Assembly (NCBI GenBank): GCA_951406725.2
Contig: OX597814.1
Coordinates: 31,682,001-31,746,000, forward strand
From: Octopus vulgaris
Taxonomy: Eukaryota
Reading direction: 5' to 3'
Length of the DNA stretch: 64,000 nucleotides
Below, in pieces: positions 200-54,467 of this stretch. The position numbers and the translations under genes are program-made. How positions within the stretch are numbered: the stretch's first letter is position 1; each line of letters opens with the position of its first letter. The notes under the pieces were generated by a model that was given only the letters and a program-made list of their open reading frames with translations, was not told the DNA's origin and ran no database searches.

Positions 200-625
200 C
201 TTTTCGAATCCCAGGGACGGTGTCTTGCTTTTACGATTGCATGATATAATTACTTAGGAATATCTATTAATTAAGTTTTCTCGATGTTATGTTTTCTAAG
301 GTTTTCTCCAGGCATACGTTACACACCCGCGATGTTCTCTTGTATGGTCTAGTGTTTTTTTATTTTATTATAGACCAGTGGGTTGTATGCTCCACATTTT
401 TTGAGGTCCCAGATGAGGTTAGATAATGATGTGCAGTGCTTTTTGTTTACATTGGAAAATGACGTAGGGTGGTTGCGCAGGCGATTTTTTATGTTGTTTC
501 CGGTACTACAAATGTACACATATTTTTATGTAGACGTTTTCATTTCTCATTTGTAAATCACATTCTTTACCATGCAGTTGTTATTAAATTTGCATTCATT
601 TTCTGTCTGAATTTACATGTTATAT
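200..625 (-). pseudogene. Penelope-like element GIY-YIG endonuclease remnant (frameshifted)
   Basis: Manual minus-strand translation gives ..ECKFNNNCMVKNVIYK..YVYICSTGNNIKNRLRNHPTSFSNVNKKHCTSLSNLIWDLK..TRPYKRTSRVCNVCLEKTLE, matching the PLE pattern CxxxxxCxxxNVIYK / YIGxT..KxRxxNHxxSF / LSxxIWxLK / CxxCLxEK. Contains stops and frameshifts. Confidence 0.8.
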
Positions 626-12432: not shown

Positions 12433-12645
12433 CACACTCGCCTTTGCAAAGTTCCTGATGTGAAATCGTGTGTTGAAGCAGATATTGTTATAGTTTGGTA
12501 TCGTGGTTTACTTTACTTTTATTTTCTGGTGAGGGGGGTGCAATTAACCACACAAGCTACATATTCGTTCTTCACTTCAGCTTATCATCATCATCATCCT
12601 TCTCATCATCATCATCATCCTCCTCATCATCATCATCATCATCTT

Positions 12646-14010
12646 CATGTCTAACGCACCACACTTTTTCAGTCCGAACTCCATTCTGATATCAGCTCTA
12701 AAAGTATACACCATACCAACGAGGGAACTGACTTGGGATTTATCATTACCATAAAGTTTGAGTTCCTCCATGAATAACAAGTGATTGAGTTTTTGTTGGT
12801 GGCTTTTGTATACATACCCAGCTTTTACTTTCATCAGAATCAGTGTTAGTATATCCTACCCATTGTCAAGCACTCTGGTGTTATTTGGTCGGCATTTAAA
12901 TAGGTGTTGAGTTGTGCAGCTATTCGTGCATGACATTCCCCCAAATCTTTTGATATCCAGTAGCCTTGAACTCCATCTGGGCCCGGAGCCTTCCATTTGC
13001 CCAGTTTGTTGCTGATTTTCTTCACTTTCCTAACTGAAATGGCTAGTTCTGCCTGTTTTGGACAGACTGCCGTTTGTTTCAGTTCTTGCAACCATTCAGC
13101 ATCCTTCTTGTGCTCCAGATGTCACTTCAAAAACCTTTGACTTTCAATATTATCTGTTATCAACTTTTCATCTGTACAGTTTCCACTTATTTCTTTATAG
13201 CGTCTCATTTGATCCACTCTGAATAACCTGTTCTGCTGGTAAATCTTCATTCTTTGGTCGTATCTTGCAATCTTAGCTTTCACTGCAACGAGGCTCTGTT
13301 TCAGTTCCTTCATTACTACATTCAGGCTCTCTCTTTCAATATACTTCCTGTTCAGTGCCCTGTATTTTTTGTTAGCATTTAAGCTCCCCCTTCTCTTTTC
13401 AGTCTAACACAGAAATGTCTTTCGAGGGCATATCTAACCTCACCAGTATTCGTCTTTTCCACCATGGATCTTTTCTTTTGTCACTCCCATTATATTTCAT
13501 TTTCTTAACATCAACACCCACATTTTCTTCTACAACAATACTTTCTGCCTTGATGAACTTATTTGTTACTGTGATGTTTTTTTGTTCTGATATATTTCGC
13601 AATTGCATTCACATTTTTCGATTCTTGGTTCAATTTCCACCGATTAACTTTTTTTAAGGTTGCAAATAATGTCGCTATCATTCTCCTGTAACTTTGCCTT
13701 TATTCTATAGTAAATTGCCTTTTGCCCATATGTCATGTCACCATTAGTTTCAGTGTCTTCTTCGAATCCATCCATATGTCTCTCATCGAGCATGCTATCT
13801 TTGATCCTTTCCTGTAATGTGGTTTATTGGGGATTTCACCTCTATTTTCTACTATGAGTTTACTTTTATCAGTAGGAACTATATTTTCATCGTTTCCTCT
13901 GCTGCTGTTTTCCAATACTTTTGATAGCTTCGAGCTCTCCTTCTTTGAACCAAAGATTTTTTCTTACTGCTGTAGCTTTATCACACATTCCCTGTTCCGT
14001 GAGTTGAAAT
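12646..14010 (-). pseudogene. Decayed R4/Dong-like non-LTR retrotransposon (N-terminal region plus RT)
   Basis: ORF fragments KDPWWKRRI, YDQRMKIYQQNRLF, KLGKWKAPGPDGVQGYW, KLNHLLFMEELKLYG (degenerate HLLYMDDLKLY) and IRMEFGLKKC; internal deletion within RT. Confidence 0.85.
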
Positions 14011-31324: not shown

Positions 31325-32754
31325 TGATTGTTCTTCTATTGCTTGAAATTTTTTGTATCATCTAATGAAAACAGTTTGTTTCTTTTTTGCTATGATGTAA
31401 TGCACTCATCCATTTATTAAAATGCGTTAGAAGCAGCTGTAATGGACTGACATTCATTCATCATTTGTTATTTATTTATTTGCTTATGATCCACCAAAAT
31501 GGAATCCCGACCCGTCTGACATTCTGGAGTATATCAAACACGCAGCGAAGCCGTACAACGTGCTCTTTCGACCAGCTCTTATGCGTTAAACACTCGTAAG
31601 GGTGAAATTGTCTGTATGCATAAACTGAATATTTCACTGAAGGTACTTCAGTATCCAGAATATTTATTTGACTAAAGATAGTGTTTAGAAGTTAAAGTAC
31701 CTGATTCTCTCCCGAATTTTTAATATCATATATATATATATATACATGCATACATAAGAAAGTAAGTTAGATGTGAATCCAACCAACTAAGGGATAGTAT
31801 CTATCCAATATACTGCAGGTAGAATATCTTATTAATACACAAGTAAGTGTTGGTTATTGCGTGGCAACTACCCTACTGAGTATAATAATATATATACATA
31901 TATATATATATGAATGTATATACATATATATGTGTATATATATATATATATATATAAATAATTTAGAACTGAAATAAGAATGTTTCTTACAGATAAATTA
32001 GCAGACATACATACAGACGCATGCACACGCATTCACAGGTACGCAGGCACATGCACATACAAAGTCTATAAATTGTAGAAACGTCACGCAGTTAGGATAA
32101 ATTCTAAGTTTCAACTCCGAATGAAATATCCCTATTCTTTGTCACTTATACCATCAGTAACTGTGCAATGACAGCATATAGATAGGATTCTAATGAAGGT
32201 CGTAGTAAGATGTGAGCCGCTAATAAGGATTGAGGTAGTATCTGGCTGTTCGCGTTCAAATGTTGTTCGATAAATTTATACTTACAAAAAAATGATGATG
32301 AGACCACAGAGATAATGAAAAACTTAATATAGGAGAGCAGGCAAGATAGAGAAAATAAATTAAAAGAAATTACAAATAACAAATATAGTAATAAACTAAA
32401 CTCGGCTATATCAAGCATAAATAAATCATTAAACCTAACTGAATTTCAATGTTGTTTAATAAACACAAAGAACTATTAAATATATCTATTAACAAAACAG
32501 AAAAAAATCACAGAAATATAGTTGTGTATATAACACCTGCTCAAATGTAGATGTATATATATATATATATATATAAATAATAAATATTAGGGAATAAATC
32601 CAAATTTACAGGGAAAAAATCAGATTTAGGATTAAATCCAATTTTATAGTAAAATATTATAAAATATTATTAGAGACAAAACCACTATTTTGCAAAACAA
32701 ACAAGGAAAGACTTAATCAATACATAAAATTTTAATAAATAGTCAAAAAAACCG

Positions 32755-32797
32755 CCACTACAATTGTTTCTTGTCTTGATCGACAATCTTCAGGTGG
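32755..32797 (-). ncRNA. Canonical type I hammerhead ribozyme
   Basis: Exact reverse complement of 34101-34143. Confidence 0.88.
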
Positions 32798-34100
32798 ACT
32801 TCCAATCTAAAATATCAATATTTTAAAATATAAAAATAATAATTTTAAAATAATTAAAGTATGAATGAAAAAATATAAATATATAATCCATATATAACCT
32901 ATATATAATCCATATATAATCAATATATAAACAATATATAAACTAAAATAAACCTATCAACAATTAAATATAAAATATAAAATATAAAATATAAAATATA
33001 AAACAAAACAAAAAAATAATAATAATATAATAATAAACTATATATACACCCATACACATATACCTAATTATATATAACCATATCTAACTACATACACTAA
33101 ATCACACACCTATATATATATCCCTATACATACACATAAAAACGTCTAGGCAACTATAAATAAATAAAATAGCTAAATACTTCAACACAATACTTATTCA
33201 TACTCCCACACACACACACATACAACCCACATTCACGCTCTAGAAAACGGACATCACTTAAAATTATGAACGGAGAAATGGAATAAATGGAATTAAAAAT
33301 TATATTCACTTGGTAAAACGAACACTACTTAAAAATTATGAATGAAACAATGCAATAAAACAACAGACATCGCAAATAGACACAAATTACTACGAATTCC
33401 TTAACAAACCTACCATGATAAACCAAAACTCATAAAAACATATAATGATAAAATCTCCCTTTACTAAACTCTATAACATACCTATATAGCAATCCCCCTA
33501 ACCTAAACATTCACACACAAATACACACACGTAAACCACACACCCACGACATATACAAATACCCACACAACTTACACATACCTATACATACATATAAACC
33601 TCAACATATACTCCAAAAACCCACTCAACCCCACACAGACAAATAAACACAAAAATTATGAATGGATTCTTTTATAAAACTACCATGATAAGCTAAAACT
33701 CACAAAACAGTGTTGAAGTATTTAGCTATTTTACTTATTTATAGTTGCCTAGACGTTTTTATGTGTATGTATAGGGATATATATATAGGTGTTTGATTTA
33801 GTGTATGTAGTTAGATATGGTTATATATAATTAGGTATATGTGTATGGGTGTATATATAGTTTATTATTATATTATTATTATTTTTTTATTTTGTTTTAA
33901 ATTTTATATTTTATATTTTATATTTTATATTTAATTGTTGATAGGTTTATTTTAGTTTATATATTGTTTATATATTGATTATATATGGATTATATATAGG
34001 TTATATATGGATTATATATTTATATTTTTTCATTCATACTTTAATTATTTTAAAATTATTATTTTTATATTTTAAAATATTGATATTTTAGATTGGAAGT

Positions 34101-34143
34101 CCACCTGAAGATTGTCGATCAAGACAAGAAACAATTGTAGTGG
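34101..34143 (+). ncRNA. Canonical type I hammerhead ribozyme
   Basis: CCAC-CTGAAGA-TTGTC(GATCAA)GACAA-GAA-ACAATTGT-A-GTGG: full CUGAnGA/GAAA core, GUA site, palindromic stem III. Confidence 0.9.
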
Positions 34144-34230
34144 CGGTTTTTTTGACTATTTATTAAAATTTTATGTATTGATTAAGTCTTTCCTTGTTTG
34201 TTTTGCAAAATAGTGGTTTTGTCTCTAATA

Positions 34231-34310
<80 letters not shown>

Positions 34311-37522: not shown

Positions 37523-37829
37523 GAAAGTGAGAGATAGATAGATAAAATTTATCACAATCTACTTTTGGGGGATAGAGCTTCTATCCCTCAAACTCCTTCA
37601 CTTCCTAAATGTGTTTATGCCGTTTTCTCTGGTAATACTTTTTGGTGCATATATTCTTGTGAATGCTTTCCCGAATAAACTGCGCTTCAGTTTTGAAAAA
37701 CTGCATGCAGCAATAATTTACTACACAAGCACCCAAATATGTACATTGCATGTTATAACGGAAACAGCTGTAAGCTAATGAATTGTAAGCTGCTGAATTG
37801 TATGTAAGCTAACTATAAGCTAATGAATT

Positions 37830-39330
37830 TAGAGGGCCAGTAGCTGAGTTTGTTTTCATTTCATCAATAGCCTTTATTACATCGTCTTCCTTTATATTGA
37901 TGTAATCAATCATTGCTGCCTCCGATTTTATATCTGCAGTGGTAAAGAAGTCAGTTGGATTGCTGACTTGAAAATGCCCTATGGGTGGCGTGAAAATACT
38001 CTTGAATTGCTCATTTAGTATTTCACTTACCCTCATTGGATTTCCTGTGAGTGTGCCATCCTTTTCAAGGAGTGGCTCTATCCTACAGTGCACCGTAGCC
38101 GTTTCTTTGGCATACCTGTAGAAAGCTCTGGGGTTAGATTTTATGTTGTCTATAGCCCAGGCTTCTTTGTCTGCTCTTTCTTTTTCATGGGAGAGTTGCA
38201 GACATTTTTCAACTTCCAACAGTTTTATTTTCAGGCAGGCCCTCGGGCCATCTGACATTGGGCAGATTGAAGTCTCTCATAAGAAGTACACTTATGTGTT
38301 GTTCTAATGTGACTAGAACTTCTTCTATTTTTATAAGGCAGTCTTCAAACTTGCCTACATGGCTTGGGACATATGGAGGGCGATATGTAGCACATATAAC
38401 TACACTAAGTTGCCTTATATGTACAATTAGTGTGTCACACACCGAATTTGAGTGTGACAAAAGGACCTGGGGTGTGAGGTCCTCACGGATGTACATAGCA
38501 ACTCCTCCATGACTCCTTTCTTTTCTGTCGGTCCGCAGTGCAACATAATGTGGTATGTGTATTTCCGCATCTGCTATGTCCGGTTTCAGGTGTGTTTCCG
38601 TAAGTGCTATGCATAGGGCTTGATTGCATGCAACAAAGTCTCTCAAGAACGGGATTTTTGTCCTGTTACTGAGTGTTAGCAGTCCTCTGATGTTCAGTAG
38701 GAGCATCGGGGTGATGTGTATGCTGTTGCCGGTGGTGTCCACCTTGGGTCTATTTGCTGTGGTGGTCTTGTGTATTGTGGATAGTCCCATCTGCAAGTTT
38801 GAGTTTGATGTAGCCAGGTTAGCTGCTGTACAATCTTTTGTGCCATGCACAAAAAAGTTTCTTGTTCAGCAGCTGCCCTTTCAATAACATGTTGGCGGTT
38901 TGTAGCACGCACCACATCTGCGTACCTCCGTTTTGGAGCAGGTGGTGCGTGGTCCATCCCTTTTCCTTTTGGTAGTTGGTTTCTGACTTGTTTCGTGTTT
39001 CTGCGGCAGGGTCCCCGATGTGCAAAACGGCAGCCTGCACCTTCCTCTCCATGCCAGCAGACACCTCTCAGGTAGAACCTACACACCCGTGTGCGCTGTC
39101 TGTTTCCATCCTTTTTCGTACATGGATAGTCAGGTTTGCTTCTATCCTTGGCTGTTTCATTTTTTGGTTTTGTTTGAGTTTTAGTTTTTCCTTCTTTGAC
39201 TGTTTCATCTTTTGTTTTTCTTTTAGTTTTTCCTCCTTTTATTTCTTTTTTGGCTCTTTCATCTCCATGGCTTTTGGTGCTGGTAGGAGCACTTGCACTT
39301 GGGTTTACTTCCCGGGCAGGTTTCTCACTT
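37830..39330 (-). mobile_element. CR1/L2-group LINE fragment: ORF1 with CCCH finger, APE endonuclease and pre-RT linker
   Basis: LLNIRGL..IALTETHL..LRTDR..HGGVAMYIRE..TYRPP..DFNLPNVRW (APE); AIDNIKSNPRAFYRYAK..ILNEQFKSIFT..SATGP (pre-RT); CRFYLRGVCWHGEEGAGCRFAH in the upstream ORF. Confidence 0.9.
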
Positions 39331-43743: not shown

Positions 43744-43823
<80 letters not shown>

Positions 43824-43906
43824 GGTGAAAAGGAACACACGAGTTGATATATATGAAAAAACAAGTCAAGATAGAAAATGCTAAAATAATTTTATAAAGA
43901 ACATTT

Positions 43907-43943
43907 CAGTACCGGTTTCGTCATTTTGAGACTTTTTCAACTG
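43907..43943 (-). ncRNA. Hammerhead-like motif with U3-A8 covariant core
   Basis: Minus: CAG-TTGAAAA-A-GTC(TCAAAAT)GAC-GAA-ACCGGT-A-CTG; palindromic stem III, GUA site; about 85 nt from the (TA)n junction. Confidence 0.68.
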
Positions 43944-44296
43944 TAACGATTAAATAATTAAATTTAGAAAAATTAAAAGAAAAGTTTTTTTAAAGGAATA
44001 TTTGTATAGTGTTCACATATAAGTGGCATTTTCCTTGTTTCTGCCTTGCTCTGTCTCTCTTGTTTGCACTTGTGTGTTCGAGGTCGTTGTGAATTCTTGG
44101 TAGGGTAGAAGAAGAAGGTTGATGAGGAGAAGGGGTGGAAAAATTTGGGAGTGCCTTGATTGTCGTATTTTGAATGGTCAATGACGGCTAGCAGTTGCAG
44201 TTCAATTCAGGAGAATATTTCTATTGAAAGGTTTGTTTATGGAATTTGCGTTGGTGTTATACTAAAAAACATTAGTGATAAAGTTAAGAAGTAGAA

Positions 44297-44560
44297 GTTG
44301 GAGCAGAAGAAGACGAAGAAGAAGAAGAAGAAGAAGAAGAAGAAGAAGAAGAAGAAGAAGAAGAAGAAGAAGAAGAAGAAGAAGAAGAAGAAGAAGAAGA
44401 AGAAGAAGAAGAAGAAGAAGAAGAAGAAGAAGATGATGACGATGTTGATGATGATGATGAAGAAGAAGAAGAAGGGGAAGCGGAAGGAGAAGAAGAAGAT
44501 GATGATGATGGTGATGATGAAGACGACGATGATGATGATAATGATGATAATGAAGAAGAT
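44297..44560. repeat. (GAA)n/(GAT)n microsatellite
   Basis: Direct inspection. Confidence 0.97.
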
Positions 44561-44899
44561 AAAAAAGAGAAGGGAGAATATGAATGAGTGGAAGTAGTGA
44601 GGTGTTGTATGACTTGAAGTTGGCACGATATGGATTATAGCTGTGATTGGGGCTGATTTGTAATGGATTCTTTGGAATGTAATGTTTGCGTGTGTATTTC
44701 TGTTGCTCTACAGCTGAGGTGCATTAATCGTTTGTCGTAGACCCGTTAAGAAGTAGCCTGTATTTTGTAATAAAGAGAGTTTCTTTACTTATTCATTGTC
44801 TTGAGGTTGTATCGTCCCTAAATTGGTAGAGGGGGAAAATCCTGAAGCCTGGTGTTTTGTTGTTGGCGCAAGTATCTATGTGTATCTTTGGCGCAAGTA

Positions 44900-45140
44900 T
44901 CTTTGGCATGAAAATATAGAGAAACTCAAAGAATTCCAAGAAATTTTAAATGGACTGGACGTAAACATCCAATTCACGATGGAATATAGCCAGCGACAAC
45001 TTCCCTTCCTCGATATCCTCATTAAGAAAGCTAATAATGTAATAGAAACAGACATATATTATAAGCCTACAGATTCTAAGCAATATCTTCCATTCAATTC
45101 ATGCCACCCCAGACACACCAGGATGAATATCCCCTTCAAT
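44900..45140 (+). pseudogene. Penelope-like reverse transcriptase C-terminal/thumb fragment
   Basis: LKEFQEILNGLDVNIQFTMEYSQRQLPFLDILIKK..IETDIYYKPTDSKQYLPFNSCHPRHTRMNIPFN contains the PLE motifs IxFTxE, LPFLD, YxKPT and SxHP. Confidence 0.92.
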
Positions 45141-45155
45141 ACGGATATATATATA

Positions 45156-46404
45156 TTTGGTTGGCAACTAAGTTCTCGCGGGTTTTTTTATTTAAAATTT
45201 TTAAATGCTTTAATAAAAAATAATTAATTAATCAATAATATATTCACCCTTGTTGTTTACAAATTATTCCCAACGTTCAACAAGATTTTCAATACCTCGT
45301 TGGTAGAAATCACCCGATTTCGATCGAAAAATTGATCCAACCAAGCTCTCATTTGTGCATCAGTCTTGAATGAAACTGCGCGCATAGCATTTGAAAAAGA
45401 TCGAAAGAGGTGAAAATCCGTTAGTGCCAAATCAGGAGAGTACGGTGGGAGTGGCAGCACTTCTCAGCCATGCGTTTGAATGGCTTCCTTGGTCATATTG
45501 GTGATATGAGGGCGGGCGTTGTCGTGCAGCAGAAGAACTCCATGCTGCTTATTAGGTTTTTTCTCTTGAATAGCCGTGTTGTGTCGTTCCATCTGTTAAA
45601 CATAGAGTTCCGCGTTGACCGTTTGGTTCCATTCCAGCAATTCGTAATGGATAATCCCTTCCCAATCGCAGCATACGCACAACATTATTTTACGCGGATG
45701 AAGATTCTGTTTCACGCGCGGTGTCTCTTGTTTACCGGGGCTAAGCCATTCCTTTCGCTGCTTCACACTGATGTACAGGCACCATTTTTCGTCGCCAGTA
45801 ACGATTCGGTATAAAAAAAAACGTTGATTGTATCCATGAGTTGAGCGGTGACGACCAACCAAACCAGCGGAGATTGTGGCTCGTTGATTTTTGTTGTTGT
45901 CACTTAAAACATGCGGAATCCTTGCTCCATACTTCTGAATCGTTCCCACCGTGTGAAGATGCTTCTCTATGGCAGTGTGGGAGCATTCCATTTTCTCTGC
46001 CAGTTTCCTTGTTGTTTGACGAGAATTTTCGTGCAAAAGTTGGTTTAATGGCTCTTCATCGAACTCAACTGGGCGACCAGAGCGAACAGTGGTTTTGAGT
46101 TTAAAATTTCCATTTTTGAACTTGGTATACCAATCGCGAGCGGTTCTTTCAACTATCAAACCCGCTCCATACACAGCACAAATGTCACGAGCAGCTCTTG
46201 CGGCCTTAGAACCTTGCTAAAAGCAAAAAGAAGGAGATGTTGAAAGTGCTCGTTTTTCTTAACTTGACATGCCATTTTAATGATCTGAAAATAAACAAAA
46301 AATAACTAAAATTAATTAGAAAAACAACAAAATAGATTCCGAAATTTAAAAACGCAATAAATTCCAAAATTTGAAAAACAGCGGGAACATTGTTGTCAAC
46401 CCAA
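45156..46404 (-). mobile_element. Full-length mariner transposon with frameshifted D,D34D transposase (about 46275-45228)
   Basis: TIRs tttggttggcaactaagttc / gaacattgttgtcaacccaa flanked by TA; motifs RSGRP, IVTGDEKW, HDNARPH and YSPDLALTDFHLF. Confidence 0.95.
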
Positions 46405-47169: not shown

Positions 47170-48275
47170 TATATAAATGGTAATATTATTTAAAATAATT
47201 CATACCATGGGGCTAGCATGCGTTAAAATGTCAGTAGACATTGATATTTGTTTTAATATATATATGAGGGTATAAAAATTTATACAAGAGGAGACGTCCA
47301 AAATGTGGTCTTCTTGTATGCTAAAAAGTGCTGTCAATTTCACAATCCACGAAAGGACAGTCTTATTTGTAGCACTTTGTAAGCGAGAAGGACAATTTGG
47401 AAGAATTAAATATCAGTCAATTCTATACTCCGAAGTTCCACCTTTAATGATTAAATAATTCAATTAATTAATCAATCAGTTGATGAATTAGCCATCCGTG
47501 AATTATCAGTAGAATCGCTGCTACACATACTTATAAAACTCGAATACGCACCGAAGCAAGTGTATAGTGCGTTTCATCGTTACACACCAAGAATTCAATT
47601 AAAATTATCGTTCTGCGGCAGAATAATACAGCAGTGAATATAAGTTTAACTGTGAACCTTCTGACCCAAGAATTAAAATAACTATAAGCATAAAGGGTAA
47701 AAATTATTTAAAATAATTTATGAATGTAGCTCGCTTACAACCAAAGTGCTATAAAAGTGTTCTTTCTCGTGTTGGGAATTTGACATCCCTTTTTATCATG
47801 CAAGAAAACCACATAGTGGTCTTCTCTCTGTGTAAACATTTTTATAATCTCGTATGTACTCTTAAAATATTTATGTCTACTGATGTTTTTTTATGCATGA
47901 TAGCCACTTGGTATAAATCATTATTTTTAATAATTTTACCCTTTATATCTATACTTGAATATTTTAATTTTTGGGTCAGATAATTCACTGTTAAACTTAT
48001 ATTCACTGCTGCATGTGTTTCGGTGCATACTGGAGTTTTATGTGTCGCAGAGATTTTACTGAGAATCCACGGATGGTTAATCCATCAATTGATTGATTAA
48101 TTGATTTATTTAATCATTAATTGTGAAACTTCGGAGTATAGAATTAACTTATATTTTAATTTGTTCAAATTGTCCTTCTCGCTTACAATCAAAGAATGTT
48201 CTTTGGTGCTTTGGGAATTTGACTGCACCTTTTAGCATGAAAGAAGACCACATAATGGTTTTCTCTTCGTGTAAG
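47170..48275. mobile_element. Diverged ~520-bp PLE-like unit in permuted and inverted arrangement
   Basis: 47283-47720 is the reverse complement of about 47920-48275; 47170-47260 matches the reverse complement of 47865-47950; 47730-47835 repeats at 48178-48272. Extended hammerhead-like motifs at 47420-47515 (-) and 48053-48144 (+). Confidence 0.75.
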
Positions 48276-48279
48276 AGAG

Positions 48280-49052
48280 TTGTGGACCTTCAGCGATTTG
48301 CTCTGGATCTCGACAACGGTGATCTTCGAGCAGCAGTTTCATTTTGGAGAAGAGATGGAAGTATGTATGGGGATAAATCTGGCAAATAAGGTTGGTACAG
48401 AGCTGATACCATGTTGTTTCTTGTGGGAATCTCACGAATGAGGAGAGATCCGTAACAAGGTACATTGTCGTAGTAAAAAACCCAAGGTACATTGTCGTAG
48501 TAAAAAAGCCAATTTTTCTCACTCCACAGATCCGGTTGCCTTCACCGAATTCCTTCAAACGCTTCAAAACGTCACAGTAGAACTCTCGATTGACAATCTA
48601 GTCCTGGGGGACGAATTCTCGATGCAAAATACCACAATTCCACGGGTGAAGCTCGTGCTGGTCTTCCAAATTGCTCATTTCTTCCAGATCGCTCATTGTC
48701 TTCTAGAGACATTATCCAGCTTTGGAAGCGTCTGTGCAAATCGAGACATTGACTACGACCCATGGCTTCGTTGCCGTATGCATGCCGAAGCATGCACAAT
48801 GTCTCTGTAGCAGACTTCCCAAGTTTAACGCAAAATATCACGTTGGCTCTTTGTTCCTGTCTATGGCAAAATCGCAGACTACAGCATACACGTGATCACA
48901 AAAACACAAATTTCACAACTTGTGCAGTAAACTCAGCAATGTCACTCGGTACGCTGTTTCAAGAATGTCAGATCTGGCTCTCACGGTGCACGTGACAGTG
49001 TGTGTTGGGGTACTACACAACTAGTCGGGGAAGGTTTTGATATTATCTTGTG
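48280..49052 (-). mobile_element. Internally deleted mariner remnant
   Basis: IFCVKLGKSATETLCMLRHAYGNEAMGRSQCLDLHRRF..SLEDNERSGR is a mariner N-terminal HTH; degenerate HDN region near 48490-48510 is tandemly duplicated. Confidence 0.85.
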
Positions 49053-49324: not shown

Positions 49325-49356
<32 letters not shown>

Positions 49357-49358
49357 AG

Positions 49359-49686
49359 CACAGAAGTAAGTCTGAGACATTTCAATTTAAGAGGAAATTT
49401 AATAAAAAGATTATTTAAAGAAAATATTACCTGTTTCGATGTATATCATCTTATCAAATATCAGTAAATATTTATAAAACATATGAAGTAAAAACAGTTT
49501 ATCTTCTGTCTAGGGGTCAAGAACAGTGACAACCAGAGAGAAGATAAACTGTTTTTACTTCAATATTTTATAAATGTTTTCTGATATTTCGATAAGATGA
49601 GATACATCGAAAGCGGTAATATTTTCTTTATATAATTTTTTATTAAATTCCCTCTTAAATTGAAATGTCTGAGACTTGCTTCTGTG
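49359..49686. mobile_element. Fold-back element (arms 49359-49507, 49539-49686), each arm with a U3-A8 hammerhead motif
   Basis: Minus 49424-49461: ATAT-TTGATAA-GATG(ATATA)CATC-GAA-ACAGGT-A-ATAT. Plus 49584-49622: TCGATAA-GATG(AGATA)CATC-GAA-AGCGGT-A-ATAT. Confidence 0.8.
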
Positions 49687-49780
49687 GTATTTCTACCTCC
49701 ATCTTTTACATATAAAAATTTGATTTGTAAAGATATCTACACTTTTTGAACAATATATACATATACATATATATATATAT

Positions 49781-52700
49781 ATCAACAATAAAGGAACGGC
49801 CATAATAGGCCATTCACCCACTAGAAATAACAGCCAAAGCTTCAACCGCAAATAAAAGTTAATTCAGTAAACCAGGAGAAAATTTAAAAAACATTTACCC
49901 TGTAATTTCTTATACGATATACCGTTTCATCTGCTGATTAATGGTAAACTAACCTGATTAAATTAAATCAAGTCAATCTTCCACAGGCCCTCAGATTCTT
50001 CAGTAAGAAATAGCCCAAGACGGAACAGATATTTTCACGAGGCATTTCCGACGTTGCCAAGTTAATATCTGACCTAAAATTTTCAAATCGTCGCACTCGC
50101 ACCAAATTTATCGGCAGCAAATAAATATAAGCCGTCGATTCCATTACGGAATTAACCAGAAAATTCATAATTAATCAATATAGGGTGGCAAAAAAAATTT
50201 TGTAGAATTCTTTTGCCACCAGCGGCCTAGTAGGAAAAAATTAAAATAGTCAAAGACCATTTTTAAGTTCAACATCAACAATAAAGGAACGGCCATAATA
50301 GGCCATTCACCCACTAGAAATAACAGCCAAAGCTTCAACCGCAAATAAAAGTTAATTCAGTAAACCAGGAGAAAATTTAAAAAACATTTACCCTGTAATT
50401 TCTTATACGATATACCGTTTCATCTGCTGATTAATGGTAAACTAACCTGATTAAATTAAATCAAGCCAATCTTCCACAGGCCCTCAGATTCTTCAGTAAG
50501 AAATAGCCCAAGACGGAACAGATATTTTCACGAGGCATTTCCGACGTTGCCAAGTTAATATCTGACCTAAAATTTTCAAATCGTCGCACTCGCGCCAAAT
50601 TTATCGGCAGCAAATAAATATAAGCCGTCGATTCCATTACGGAATTAACCAGAAAATTCATAATTAATCAATATAGGGTGGCAAAAAAAATTTTGTAGAA
50701 TTCTTTTGCCACCAGCGGCCTAGTAGGAAAAAATTAAAATAGTCAAAGACCATTTTTAAGTTCAACATCAACAATAAAGGAACGGCCATAATAGGCCATT
50801 CACCCACTAGAAATAACAGCCAAAGCTTCAACCGCAAATAAAAGTTAATTCAGTAAACCAGGAGAAAATTTAAAAAACATTTACCCTGTAATTTCTTATA
50901 CGATATACCGTTTCATCTGCTGATTAATGGTAAACTAACCTGATTAAATTAAATCAAGCCAATCTTCCACAGGCCCTCAGATTCTTCAGTAAGAAATAGC
51001 CCAAGACGGAACAGATATTTTCACGAGGCATTTCCGACGTTGCCAAGTTAATATCTGACCTAAAATTTTCAAATCGTCGCACTCGCGCCAAATTTATCGG
51101 CAGCAAATAAATATAAGCCGTCGATTCCATTACGGAATTAACCAGAAAATTCATAATTAATCAATATAGGGTGGCAAAAAAAATTTTGTAGAATTCTTTT
51201 GCCACCAGCGGCCTAGTAGGAAAAAATTAAAATAGTCAAAGACCATTTTAAAGTTCAACATCAACAATAAAGGAACGGCCATAATAGGCCATTCACCCAC
51301 TAGAAATAACAGCCAAAGCTTCAACCGCAAATAAAAGTTAATTCAGTAAACCAGGAGAAAATTTAAAAAACATTTACCCTGTAATTTCTTATACGATATA
51401 CCGTTTCATCTGCTGATTAATGGTAAACTAACCTGATTAAATTAAATCAAGCCAATCTTCCACAGGCCCTCAGATTCTTCAGTAAGAAATAGCCCAAGAC
51501 GGAACAGATATTTTCACGAGGCATTTCCGACGTTGCCAAGTTAATATCTGACCTAAAATTTTCAAATCGTCGCACTCGCACCAAATTTATCGGCAGCAAA
51601 TAAATATAAGCCGTCGATTCCATTACGGAATTAACCAGAAAATTCATAATTAATCAATATAGGGTGGCAAAAAAATTTTGTAGAATTCTTTTGCCACCAG
51701 CGGCCTAGTAGGAAAAAATTAAAATATTCAAAGACCATTTTTAAGTTCAACATCAACAATAAAGGAACGGCCATAATAGGCCATTCACCCACTAGAAATA
51801 ACAGCCAAAGCTTCAACCGCAAATAAAAGTTAATTCAGTAAACCAGGAGAAAATTTAAAAAACATTTACCCTGTAATTTCTTATACGATATACCGTTTCA
51901 TCTGCTGATTAATGGTAAACTAACCTGATTAAATTAAATCAAGCCAATCTTCCACAGGCCCTCAGATTCTTCAGTAAGAAATAGCCCAAGACGGAACAGA
52001 TATTTTCACGAGGCATTTCCGACGTTGCCAAGTTAATATCTGACCTAAAATTTTCAAATCGTCGCACTCGCGCCAAATTTATCGGCAGCAAATAAATATA
52101 AGCCGTCGATTCCATTACGGAATTAACCAGAAAATTCATAATTAATCAATATAGGGTGGCAAAAAAAATTTTGTAGAATTCTTTTGCCACCAGCGGCCTA
52201 GTAGGAAAAAATTAAAATAGTCAAAGACCATTTTTAAGTTCAACATCAACAATAAAGGAACGGCCATAATAGGCCATTCACCCACTAGAAATAACAGCCA
52301 AAGCTTCAACCGCAAATAAAAGTTAATTCAGTAAACCAGGAGAAAATTTAAAAAACATTTACCCTGTAATTTCTTATACGATATACCGTTTCATCTGCTG
52401 ATTAATGGTAAACTAACCTGATTAAATTAAATCAAGCCAATCTTCCACAGGCCCTCAGATTCTTCAGTAAGAAATAGCCCAAGACGGAACAGATATTTTC
52501 ACGAGGCATTTCCGACGTTGCCAAGTTAATATCTGACCTAAAATTTTCAAATCGTCGCACTCGCGCCAAATTTATCGGCAGCAAATAAATATAAGCCGTC
52601 GATTCCATTACGGAATTAACCAGAAAATTCATAATTAATCAATATAGGGTGGCAAAAAAAAATTTTGTAGAATTCTTTTGCCACCAGCGGCCTAGTAGGA

Positions 52701-54388
52701 AAAAATTAAAATAGTCAAAGACCATTTTAAAGTTCAACATCAACAATAAAGGAACGGCCATAATAGGCCATTCACCCACTAGAAATAACAGCCAAAGCTT
52801 CAACCGCAAATAAAAGTTAATTCAGTAAACCAGGAGAAAATTTAAAAAACATTTACCCTGTAATTTCTTATACGATATACCGTTTCATCTGCTGATTAAT
52901 GGTAAACTAACCTGATTAAATTAAATCAAGCCAATCTTCCACAGGCCCTCAGATTCTTCAGTAAGAAATAGCCCAAGACGGAACAGATATTTTCACGAGG
53001 CATTTCCAACGTTGCCAAGTTAATATCTGACCTAAAATTTTCAAATCGTCGCACTCGCGCCAAATTTATCGGCAGCAAATAAATATAAGCCGTCGATTCC
53101 ATTACGGAATTAACCAGAAAATTCATAATTAATCAATATAGGGTGGCAAAAAAATTTTGTAGAATTCTTTTGCCACCAGCGGCCTAGTAGGAAAAAATTA
53201 AAATAGTCAAAGACCATTTTTAAGTTCAACATCAACAATAAAGGAACGGCCATAATAGGCCATTCACCCACTAGAAATAACAGCCAAAGCTTCAACCGCA
53301 AATAAAAGTTAATTCAGTAAACCAAGAGAAAATTTAAAAAACATTTACCCTGTAATTTCTTATACGATATACCGTTTCATCTGTTGATTAATGGTAAACT
53401 AACCTGATTAAATTAAATCAAGCCAATCTTCCACAGGCCCTCAGATTCTTCAGTAAGAAATAGCCCAAGACGGAACAGATATTTTCACGAGGCATTTCCG
53501 ACGTTGCCAAGTTAATATCTGACCTAAAATTTTCAAATCGTCGCACTCGCACCAAATTTATCGGCAGCAAATAAATATAAGCCGTCGATTCCATTACGGA
53601 ATTAACCAGAAAATTCATAATTAATCAATATAGGGTGGCAAAAAAATTTTGTAGAATTCTTTTGCCACCAGCGGCCTAGTAGGAAAAAATTAAAATAGTC
53701 AAAGACCATTTTTAAGTTCAACATCAACAATAAAGGAACGGCCATAATAGGCCATTCACCCACTAGAAATAACAGCCAAAGCTTCAACCGCAAATAAAAG
53801 TTAATTCAGTAAACCAGGAGAAAATTTAAAAAACATTTACCCTGTAATTTCTTATACGATATACCGTTTCATCTGCTGATTAATGGTAAACTAACCTGAT
53901 TAAATTAAATCAAGCCAATCTTCCACAGGCCCTCAGATTCTTCAGTAAGAAATAGCCCAAGACGGAACAGATATTTTCACGAGGCATTTCCGACGTTGCC
54001 AAGTTAATATCTGACCTAAAATTTTCAAATCGTCGCACTCGCGCCAAATTTATCGGCAGCAAATAAATATAAGCCGTCGATTCCATTACGGAATTAACCA
54101 GAAAATTCATAATTAATCAATATAGGGTGGCAAAAAAAATTTTGTAGAATTCTTTTGCCACCAGCGGCCTAGTAGGAAAAAATTAAAATAGTCAAAGACC
54201 ATTTTTAAGTTCAACATCAACAATAAAGGAACGGCCATAATAGGCCATTCACCCACTAGAAATAACAGCCAAAGCTTCAACCGCAAATAAAAGTTAATTC
54301 AGTAAACCAGGAGAAAATTTAAAAAACATTTACCCTGTAATTTCTTATACGATATACCGTTTCATCTGCTGATTAATGGTAAACTAAC
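49781..54388 (-). repeat. Tandem array of 9 full plus 1 partial 492-494-bp units, retrozyme/PLE-terminal-repeat-like
   Basis: Units start at 49781, 50274, 50767, 51260, 51752, 52245, 52739, 53231, 53723 and 54216; only a handful of differences per unit; (TA)n on both sides. Confidence 0.98.
49905..50011 (-). ncRNA. Type I hammerhead ribozyme with extended stem II, first of nine (others start at 50398, 50891, 51384, 51876, 52369, 52863, 53355, 53847)
   Basis: Minus: ATTTCTTA-CTGAAGA-ATCTG[58 nt]CAGAT-GAA-ACGG(TATA)TCGT-A-TAAGAAAT. 8-bp stem I, intact core, GUA cleavage predicted between 49913 and 49912. Confidence 0.88.
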
Positions 54389-54396
54389 TATATTGA

Positions 54397-54467
<71 letters not shown>

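Follow-up and report, generated by a model that had tools for sequence, protein, structure and literature searches.

How hammerhead satellites originate and move has been an open question since newt satellite 2, and it is raised again by a tandem array at positions 49781 to 54388 of a 64,000-nucleotide stretch of the Octopus vulgaris genome (contig OX597814.1, positions 31,682,001 to 31,746,000 of the forward strand; "the window" denotes this whole stretch). The array is real, young and mobile, and represents one insertion of a young family that is dispersed genome-wide. Most of the sampled members consist of two inverted arms of hammerhead-bearing units, which end at two different fixed sites directly against (TA)n tracts, and this footprint points to mobilisation by Penelope-like elements (PLEs).

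Tandem Repeats Finder resolves the array into 9.4 copies of a 493-bp period with 99 % matches, the unit starts lying 492 to 494 nucleotides (nt) apart and only nine alignment columns varying among the nine full units. A preliminary description of the window had proposed nine near-identical 493-bp units, each with a hammerhead and set in (TA)n, and all of this holds, with one ribozyme motif per full unit and (TA)n target tracts on both sides (49753..49780 on the left and 54405..54440 on the right). While the tandem array does occupy the boundaries it gave, 49781..54388, the element continues for a further 16 nt as an inverted arm (54389..54404, plus strand), identical to unit positions 387–402 and terminating at site B. 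The account as a plain tandem array therefore missed the two-arm, two-fixed-end architecture that is the main feature of most loci. The long arm (49781..54388, minus strand) comprises the 9.4 units and its 3' end in the RNA sense is site A (49781), while the tenth unit (54216..54388, minus strand) is 5'-truncated, retains unit positions 1–173 with only the 3' half of the ribozyme, and terminates at the inner junction. Sites A and B are alike and recur along the array: in unit 1, site A (49781..49815, minus strand; 132 nt downstream of the cut) is a predicted hairpin followed by a short U-rich stretch, and site B (50167..50220, minus strand) a predicted 13-bp hairpin followed by a U/A-rich stretch resembling that of site A. 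The two are separated by a 107-nt "tail" (50167..50273, minus strand; unit positions 387–493). No open reading frame (ORF) of at least 90 amino acids (aa) occurs in the array, the longest sense-strand ORFs with an ATG start encoding 66 and 41 aa. An ORF for reverse transcriptase (RT) plus GIY-YIG endonuclease is likewise absent from the array, which is thus not an autonomous PLE, and ARAGORN detects no tRNA genes, nor was a tRNA-derived head seen. The nine-unit arm is the longest of 54 arms tallied on contigs C1–C3 (36 loci listed), making the window array an extreme member of its family.

When the genome (2.8 Gb, 227 contigs) was searched with the unit, at least 233 matches were obtained (from 39 scored of 927 candidates). 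The exact ribozyme core of the young subfamily occurs 559 times genome-wide, against zero for the reversed control, and exact junctions of site A with (TA)n were found 182 times. On the reverse strand alone there are 671 site-B junctions, with some 1,300 loci in total (the forward counts overlap), and their excess over the young cores derives from older subfamilies that are 85–97 % identical. A 72 %-identical relative is also present, and the non-coding unit is retained in subfamilies down to 72 % identity. The 559 exact cores and the dispersed copies bear out the young retrozyme-like family proposed earlier. At the sequence level the unit thus conforms to non-long-terminal-repeat (non-LTR) retrozymes, with tandem hammerheads, no coding capacity and dispersed copies. 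The literature searched, outside which most subscription papers lie, yielded no paper on a cephalopod retrozyme and none on the paired-end footprint in retrozymes, and the available main text of PMC7229834 mentions neither octopus nor cephalopods (this and the other papers cited by identifier are drawn on for the portions of their text available). The retrozyme class has been described, and its PLE origin argued, before; the paired-end footprint on a retrozyme and the evidence for arrays born at insertion are new as far as the searches reach.

The footprint was analysed in a young set comprising the window and 38 loci from 150 listed matches, chosen by BLAST score, which favours full units. 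Two inverted arms, pointing outward in the ribozyme sense, were identified by BLAST in 33/39 loci, the 16-nt arm of the window being additional. The outer end of an arm lies at unit position 1 (site A) or at about 387 (site B), in each case directly against the (TA)n microsatellite into which the family inserts. A script classified 30 loci as A+B, five as A with an unclear partner and four as B with an unclear partner; the window and L059 were also A+B by eye, which brings the total to 32/39, and neither A+A nor B+B pairing was found among the 39. A second sample, 22 of 43 distinct listed B junctions selected for a B end only, contained sixteen insertions with an inverted A arm, five single arms ending in TA, one ending elsewhere and no B+B pair. 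No two of 100 listed A junctions lie within 10 kb of each other, and in a hand tally of the 36 loci listed on C1–C3 all eighteen two-orientation loci diverge in the ribozyme sense. Inverted arms and TA targets are also known from foldback elements, and long-read sequencing can generate palindromes artefactually. Both a DNA transposon, of the foldback or another type, whose inverted arms are filled with repeats and an artefactual assembly of fold-back chimeric long reads are nevertheless very improbable, as the two ends differ, the inner junction pairs are unique in 33/33 loci, the flanks are not mirrored, and opposite-strand joints also occur in contigs of two of four other runs. A foldback or terminal inverted repeat DNA transposon was in addition rejected on the lack of identical termini and of repeated whole copies. 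In PLE insertions, by comparison, a truncated copy in inverted orientation and a tail on one side are frequent (PMC8557442). A PLE protein studied in purified form cleaves the two strands of its target and extends each of them, with two internal RNA starts bounding the tail (PMC11167929). Since the inverted copy, the one-sided tail and the two fixed ends match this PLE footprint, the family is read as PLE-mobilised. The insertion footprint (32/39 A+B) thereby backs the PLE mobilisation suggested in the preliminary description, and priming of the PLE type at two sites is highly probable.

The inner junctions and the sequence variants bear on the template that was copied. Of the 33 junctions, 28 range from an overlap of 6 nt to a gap of 1 nt, and the remainder include short inserted pieces of the unit (L037 3337–3400, L063 2721–2742, L047 and L048); the inserts of L037 and L063 are site-A sequence, which suggests repeated re-priming at A. 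The cleavage site shows no excess of breakpoints (4/66 within 10 nt of the cut, 2.8 expected), and a cleaved linear monomer was rejected as the template because the arms do not stop there. Position 284 splits the loci 15/11, yet the arms agree in 26/26 loci and mixed alleles are found in 0/34 multi-segment loci. Likewise, the arms agree at position 473 in 24/25 loci, and rare variants are fixed across both arms within single loci (e.g. L061, L063 and L067). Because the arms share alleles, traverse the cut and end at unique junctions, each array appears to have been copied from a single template at the time of insertion. The number of ribozymes per arm, tallied by hand over 99 places listed for C1–C3 (31, 14, 5, 0, 2, 1, 0, 0, 1), is near the geometric expectation (29.5, 13.4, 6.1, 2.8, 1.3, 0.6, 0.3, 0.1, 0.1). 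As a separate observation, locus-fixed changes in the young loci L031–L068 comprise six A>G and one T>C in the ribozyme sense (p 0.02), several of them in the long stem II, with counts of five and one by site (p 0.05) and of ten and seven among single variants (p 0.11). This is a weak, post hoc hint that the template RNA may possibly undergo A-to-I editing.

On balance, the family is read as a non-autonomous, PLE-dependent retrozyme, the arrays of which are written during insertion with a circle as the favoured template. The minus strand would be transcribed and the hammerhead, perhaps as a dimer, would cut the transcript every 493 nt, after which a host ligase would circularise the monomer, by analogy with other retrozymes, which form circles (PMC7229834). 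A PLE protein with RT and GIY-YIG activities would then cleave both strands of the (TA)n observed as target. At the end positions mapped above, reverse transcription of a single RNA would be primed twice, by one DNA end at site A and by the other at site B, which lies 107 nt further downstream. Each RT would circle the template up to a random stop, giving n-and-a-fraction units, and the two cDNA ends would be joined via 0–6 nt of microhomology, resulting in two diverging arms. The circle is favoured because arm length is unbounded and private variants are fixed, and we consider it rather likely that the template is circular and not a linear multimer. It is also possible, although held with less than even confidence, that one RT-endonuclease dimer acts on one 493-nt circle, with strand-specific assignment of A and B and two simultaneous rolling-circle reactions. 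The same might occur on the 3.6-kb circles of autonomous Hydra PLEs, so that pseudo-LTRs (pLTRs), tandems, inversions, tails and retrozyme satellites would share one hammerhead-made circular intermediate.

A strict motif scan of both window strands (8-bp stem I, CUGAAGA, 68-nt stem II, GAAA, 4-bp stem III, GUA) identified nine hammerheads, all on the minus strand and all within the array: 49905..50011, 50398..50504, 50891..50997, 51384..51490, 51876..51982, 52369..52475, 52863..52969, 53355..53461 (with a single change in stem II) and 53847..53953 for units 1 to 9, respectively. These have the type I core (CUGANGA, GAAA and NUH) with stems I–III, and the intact core and 8-bp stem I reported previously were recovered in 9/9. 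The A17 residues lie at 49913, 50406, 50899, 51392, 51884, 52377, 52871, 53363 and 53855, the first in agreement with the cut predicted earlier between 49913 and 49912. The proposed check against Rfam models did not recover the hammerheads: there was no match in the window at the gathering score, and one unit searched at E ≤ 10 gave seven chance-level matches, none to hammerhead families. This is probably due to the 68-nt stem II, which is the observed part of the "extended" character ascribed to the hammerhead. All eleven core bases are invariant across thirteen older loci that were aligned by BLAST, unselected for the motif, in which 196/488 columns vary; four states are found at N7, and A or C at H17 (naive P 0.003, with kinship ignored). 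In thirteen motif-selected copies 95.4 % of cells are paired, with four two-sided pair changes, three of them via one divergent sequence. The 12-nt stem III arm is predicted to pair with a second copy at −13.6 kcal/mol, which makes dimeric cleavage plausible, and dimeric hammerheads have been described (PMC7229834). Judged from core conservation and folding, the hammerhead is plausibly functional. The stretch is present in 20/24 sequencing-run rows, none recorded as RNA, and the contigs from four runs guessed to be RNA establish its presence only, being uninformative on level, strand, ends and circles.

With regard to the PLE that might supply the enzyme, the preliminary description had pointed to RT and GIY-YIG remnants in the window as plausible partner lineages. 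Both remnants are present, but a partner role is not borne out for the family of the RT remnant (44865..45140), which has a tail of ~33–35 nt and no homology to the unit. This very abundant young family has intact 785-aa ORFs with GLKF, DKG and CX4CxxC motifs, by which it appears Neptune-like (PMC8557442). Its copy in the window (43813..45140) is a truncated, inverted insertion, with the RT piece on the plus strand and the GIY-YIG piece and 3' untranslated region on the minus strand. The family also has a second ORF of 435–437 aa overlapping the start of the RT-endonuclease ORF (L090 7144–5831 in minus-strand numbering, L092 1514–2827 and L096 2626–3933), which has no Pfam match and is unusual for single-ORF PLEs, and its hammerhead shows an apparent U3/A8 core variant. 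The GIY-YIG remnant (385..600, minus strand) resembles Hydra-type families (E 4e-7 to 6e-6). Four more families carry the Hydra-type RW. and DKT motifs, with CxCX5C in families 3 and 4 (RWK in family 4), and at least four young Hydra-type families have intact ORFs of 778–984 aa (L162–L194), for which Pfam offers no name. Families 2 and 4 have long-stem-II hammerheads, (TA)n insertion and end sites ~155 and ~117 nt apart, respectively, the ends of family 4 being based on three near and three far ends; the sample for family 5 and the outliers comprised only three loci. At one family 2 locus (L153, L154; C1 near 119.51–119.53 Mb) four copies lie head to tail 3.62 kb apart, each with a single hammerhead, an arrangement that a circular or tandem template would be expected to produce. 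Family 4 is closest to the retrozyme in tail length and terminates in a hairpin and a similar 8-nt stretch, while the core of family 5 begins CCGAAGA instead of CUGAAGA. The autonomous PLEs of the genome share the two-end layout with the retrozyme, and a partner from the Hydra clade is marginally favoured. A 76-nt match of 68 % to a family 2 relative (E 0.006) is unexplained, and likenesses of the sequence after site B to the 5' leader of family 4 (78/500 shuffles as high) and to family 5 (17/500, in one of four comparisons) were rejected.

The layout of ribozyme, near end, tail and far end in these autonomous families also accords with another explanation, in which the unit is the pseudo-LTR of an autonomous PLE beyond those found and the arrays are its truncated products. 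The preliminary description had itself allowed that the unit might be the terminal repeat of a known PLE. No homology to any of the five families was found, nor any pLTR sequence in common with them, in a comparison outside which Naiads and others lie; Naiads, to which the Octopus rows examined in the PMC8557442 supplement belong, also target (TA)n in Octopus. However, what precedes the unit in the 39 young loci and the 22 B-end insertions is a further unit or an arm in inverted orientation, no adjoining RT ORF emerges when the B-end set is scanned for ORFs, and the unit stays non-coding in subfamilies down to 72 % identity, making a pseudo-LTR quite improbable.

Several observations weigh against the circle-templated, PLE-dependent retrozyme. 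When six regions from the five families were locally aligned with the unit, 9–96 of 100 shuffles scored as high, i.e. there is no homology. A recognisable second end is lacking in 7/39 young loci and 6/22 B-end insertions, and in L146, the relative with 72 % identity, both ends are of the A type. Folding prediction places the active fold 1.8 kcal/mol above the minimum free energy for the unit alone and 2.1 above it in the circle, with a weak stem III (pair probability ≤0.08). Ribozyme cleavage is not required by the anole PLE, the main substrate of which is uncleaved RNA (PMC11167929), and only one of nine Xenopus retrozymes was cleaved in vitro (10.64898/2026.07.22.740005). Furthermore, the variants do not follow the clean U-shaped spectrum that a single-circle model predicts: positions with at least four segments show 62 single, seven partial and three fixed variants, and those with at least three segments 71, seven and nine, respectively (two subfamily sites and homopolymer columns are left out). 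In some cases a partial variant is present in both arms, with no clear periodicity, and multimeric circles were rejected as the seven partial variants have no exact period.

The main rival retains the two-site PLE priming but takes as template a linear multimer transcribed from an array already in place and left uncleaved, the ribozyme serving elsewhere, for example in 5'-end definition or turnover. It accords with unprocessed RNA as the dominant substrate in PMC11167929, with the weak stem III and with the seven partial variants, which suggest heterogeneous templates, while locus L035 enters an N gap able to conceal a long source array. Rare variants fixed in every unit of both arms, however, require a step that amplifies one monomer, no long array is among the 36 loci listed for C1–C3, where the nine units of the window are the maximum, arms would become shorter with every round, and the ribozyme core is conserved; we regard a linear multimer as unlikely. 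Less probable still is the insertion of short PLE terminal pieces from which the array later grew by unequal crossover or slippage, as modelled in 10.64898/2026.07.22.740005. A few partial variants are adjacent or repeated (L063, L041 and the window) and arm lengths have a slightly heavier tail than a geometric distribution, as later exchange would allow, but the 62 single against seven partial variants indicate little post-insertion exchange, the inverted arms are both multi-unit with alleles common to both, and the outer ends are fixed while the inner ends are random.

Other elements in the window include a further two-armed (TA)n insertion (32570..34240), which has 531-nt arms that are 99 % complementary, a short canonical hammerhead in each, and ends 97 and 183 nt past the cut (an 86-nt tail); it belongs to a different family with the same footprint. 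The retrozyme array is itself inserted in the (TA)n tract of an older inverted pair (49351..49752) with hammerhead-like cores (a U3/A8 variant at 49457, minus strand) and ~60 nt extra on the right. Mariner-type transposase remnants lie at 45596..46216, which matches Transposase_1 and HTH_48, and at 48232..48895, without a Pfam match. Frames at 37809..38865 and 12577..13403, also without Pfam matches, are presumably endonuclease/RT remnants of non-LTR retrotransposons, judging by their motifs.

The prior link between hammerhead satellites and PLEs rests on co-occurrence and pLTR similarity, to which the shape of the insertions adds mechanistic evidence. For the birth of arrays, a model of rolling-circle reverse transcription (PMC7229834) competes with one of unequal crossover at a later stage (10.64898/2026.07.22.740005). 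About a thousand insertions of the present family preserve a record of the reaction, in which starts are fixed, stops are random and sequence markers assign the two arms to a single template. The mechanism is made testable by the 493-nt unit as a substrate, the two start sites of which have been mapped, and by several young PLE families that are intact. The family could also settle what the PLE hammerhead does and account for the one-sided tail.

Metazoan non-LTR retrozymes (PMC7229834; 10.64898/2026.07.22.740005) likewise consist of tandem units that are low in GC, lack coding sequence and carry a single type I hammerhead. They occur in genomes that also contain PLEs and have been proposed to undergo rolling-circle reverse transcription by them. 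The 493-nt unit exceeds the 170–400 nt of PMC7229834 but falls within the 51–972 nt of 10.64898/2026.07.22.740005, and is set apart by its 68-nt stem II. Neither paper, in its available text, describes retrozymes with two inverted arms, two fixed ends or (TA)n targeting, and that of 10.64898/2026.07.22.740005 makes no mention of a tail, mollusc, junction or inverted arrays. Circles are known for other retrozymes, whereas those of the present family are putative. PLE insertions (PMC8557442) and Poseidon PAc of Anolis (PMC11167929) also show tandem copies, an inverted 5'-truncated copy, often a one-sided tail, an AT-rich target and two internal end sites downstream of the hammerhead. In contrast to PLEs, including PAc, the unit lacks an ORF and has a tail of 107 nt instead of 30–40 nt, and while its pairing of one A with one B end is near-strict, the start sites used by PAc in vitro did not differ between the target strands (PMC11167929). 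MRC1 and other Chlamys elements are non-autonomous PLE derivatives with multicopy head-to-tail insertions, as here, but the MRC1 clade lacks canonical hammerheads, and the Chlamys elements resemble their partners at the 3' end whereas the octopus unit matches no family examined (PMC8557442). The Hydra-clade PLEs combine (TA)n targeting with canonical hammerheads, as the retrozyme does (PMC8557442). Their homology to the unit does not exceed that of shuffled sequences, and the partnership with them is a putative one. Finally, in L1 twin priming both target ends also prime and the diverging arms are joined by microhomology. There the first start is the poly(A) tail and the second is variable, whereas in the octopus family both starts are fixed internal sites.

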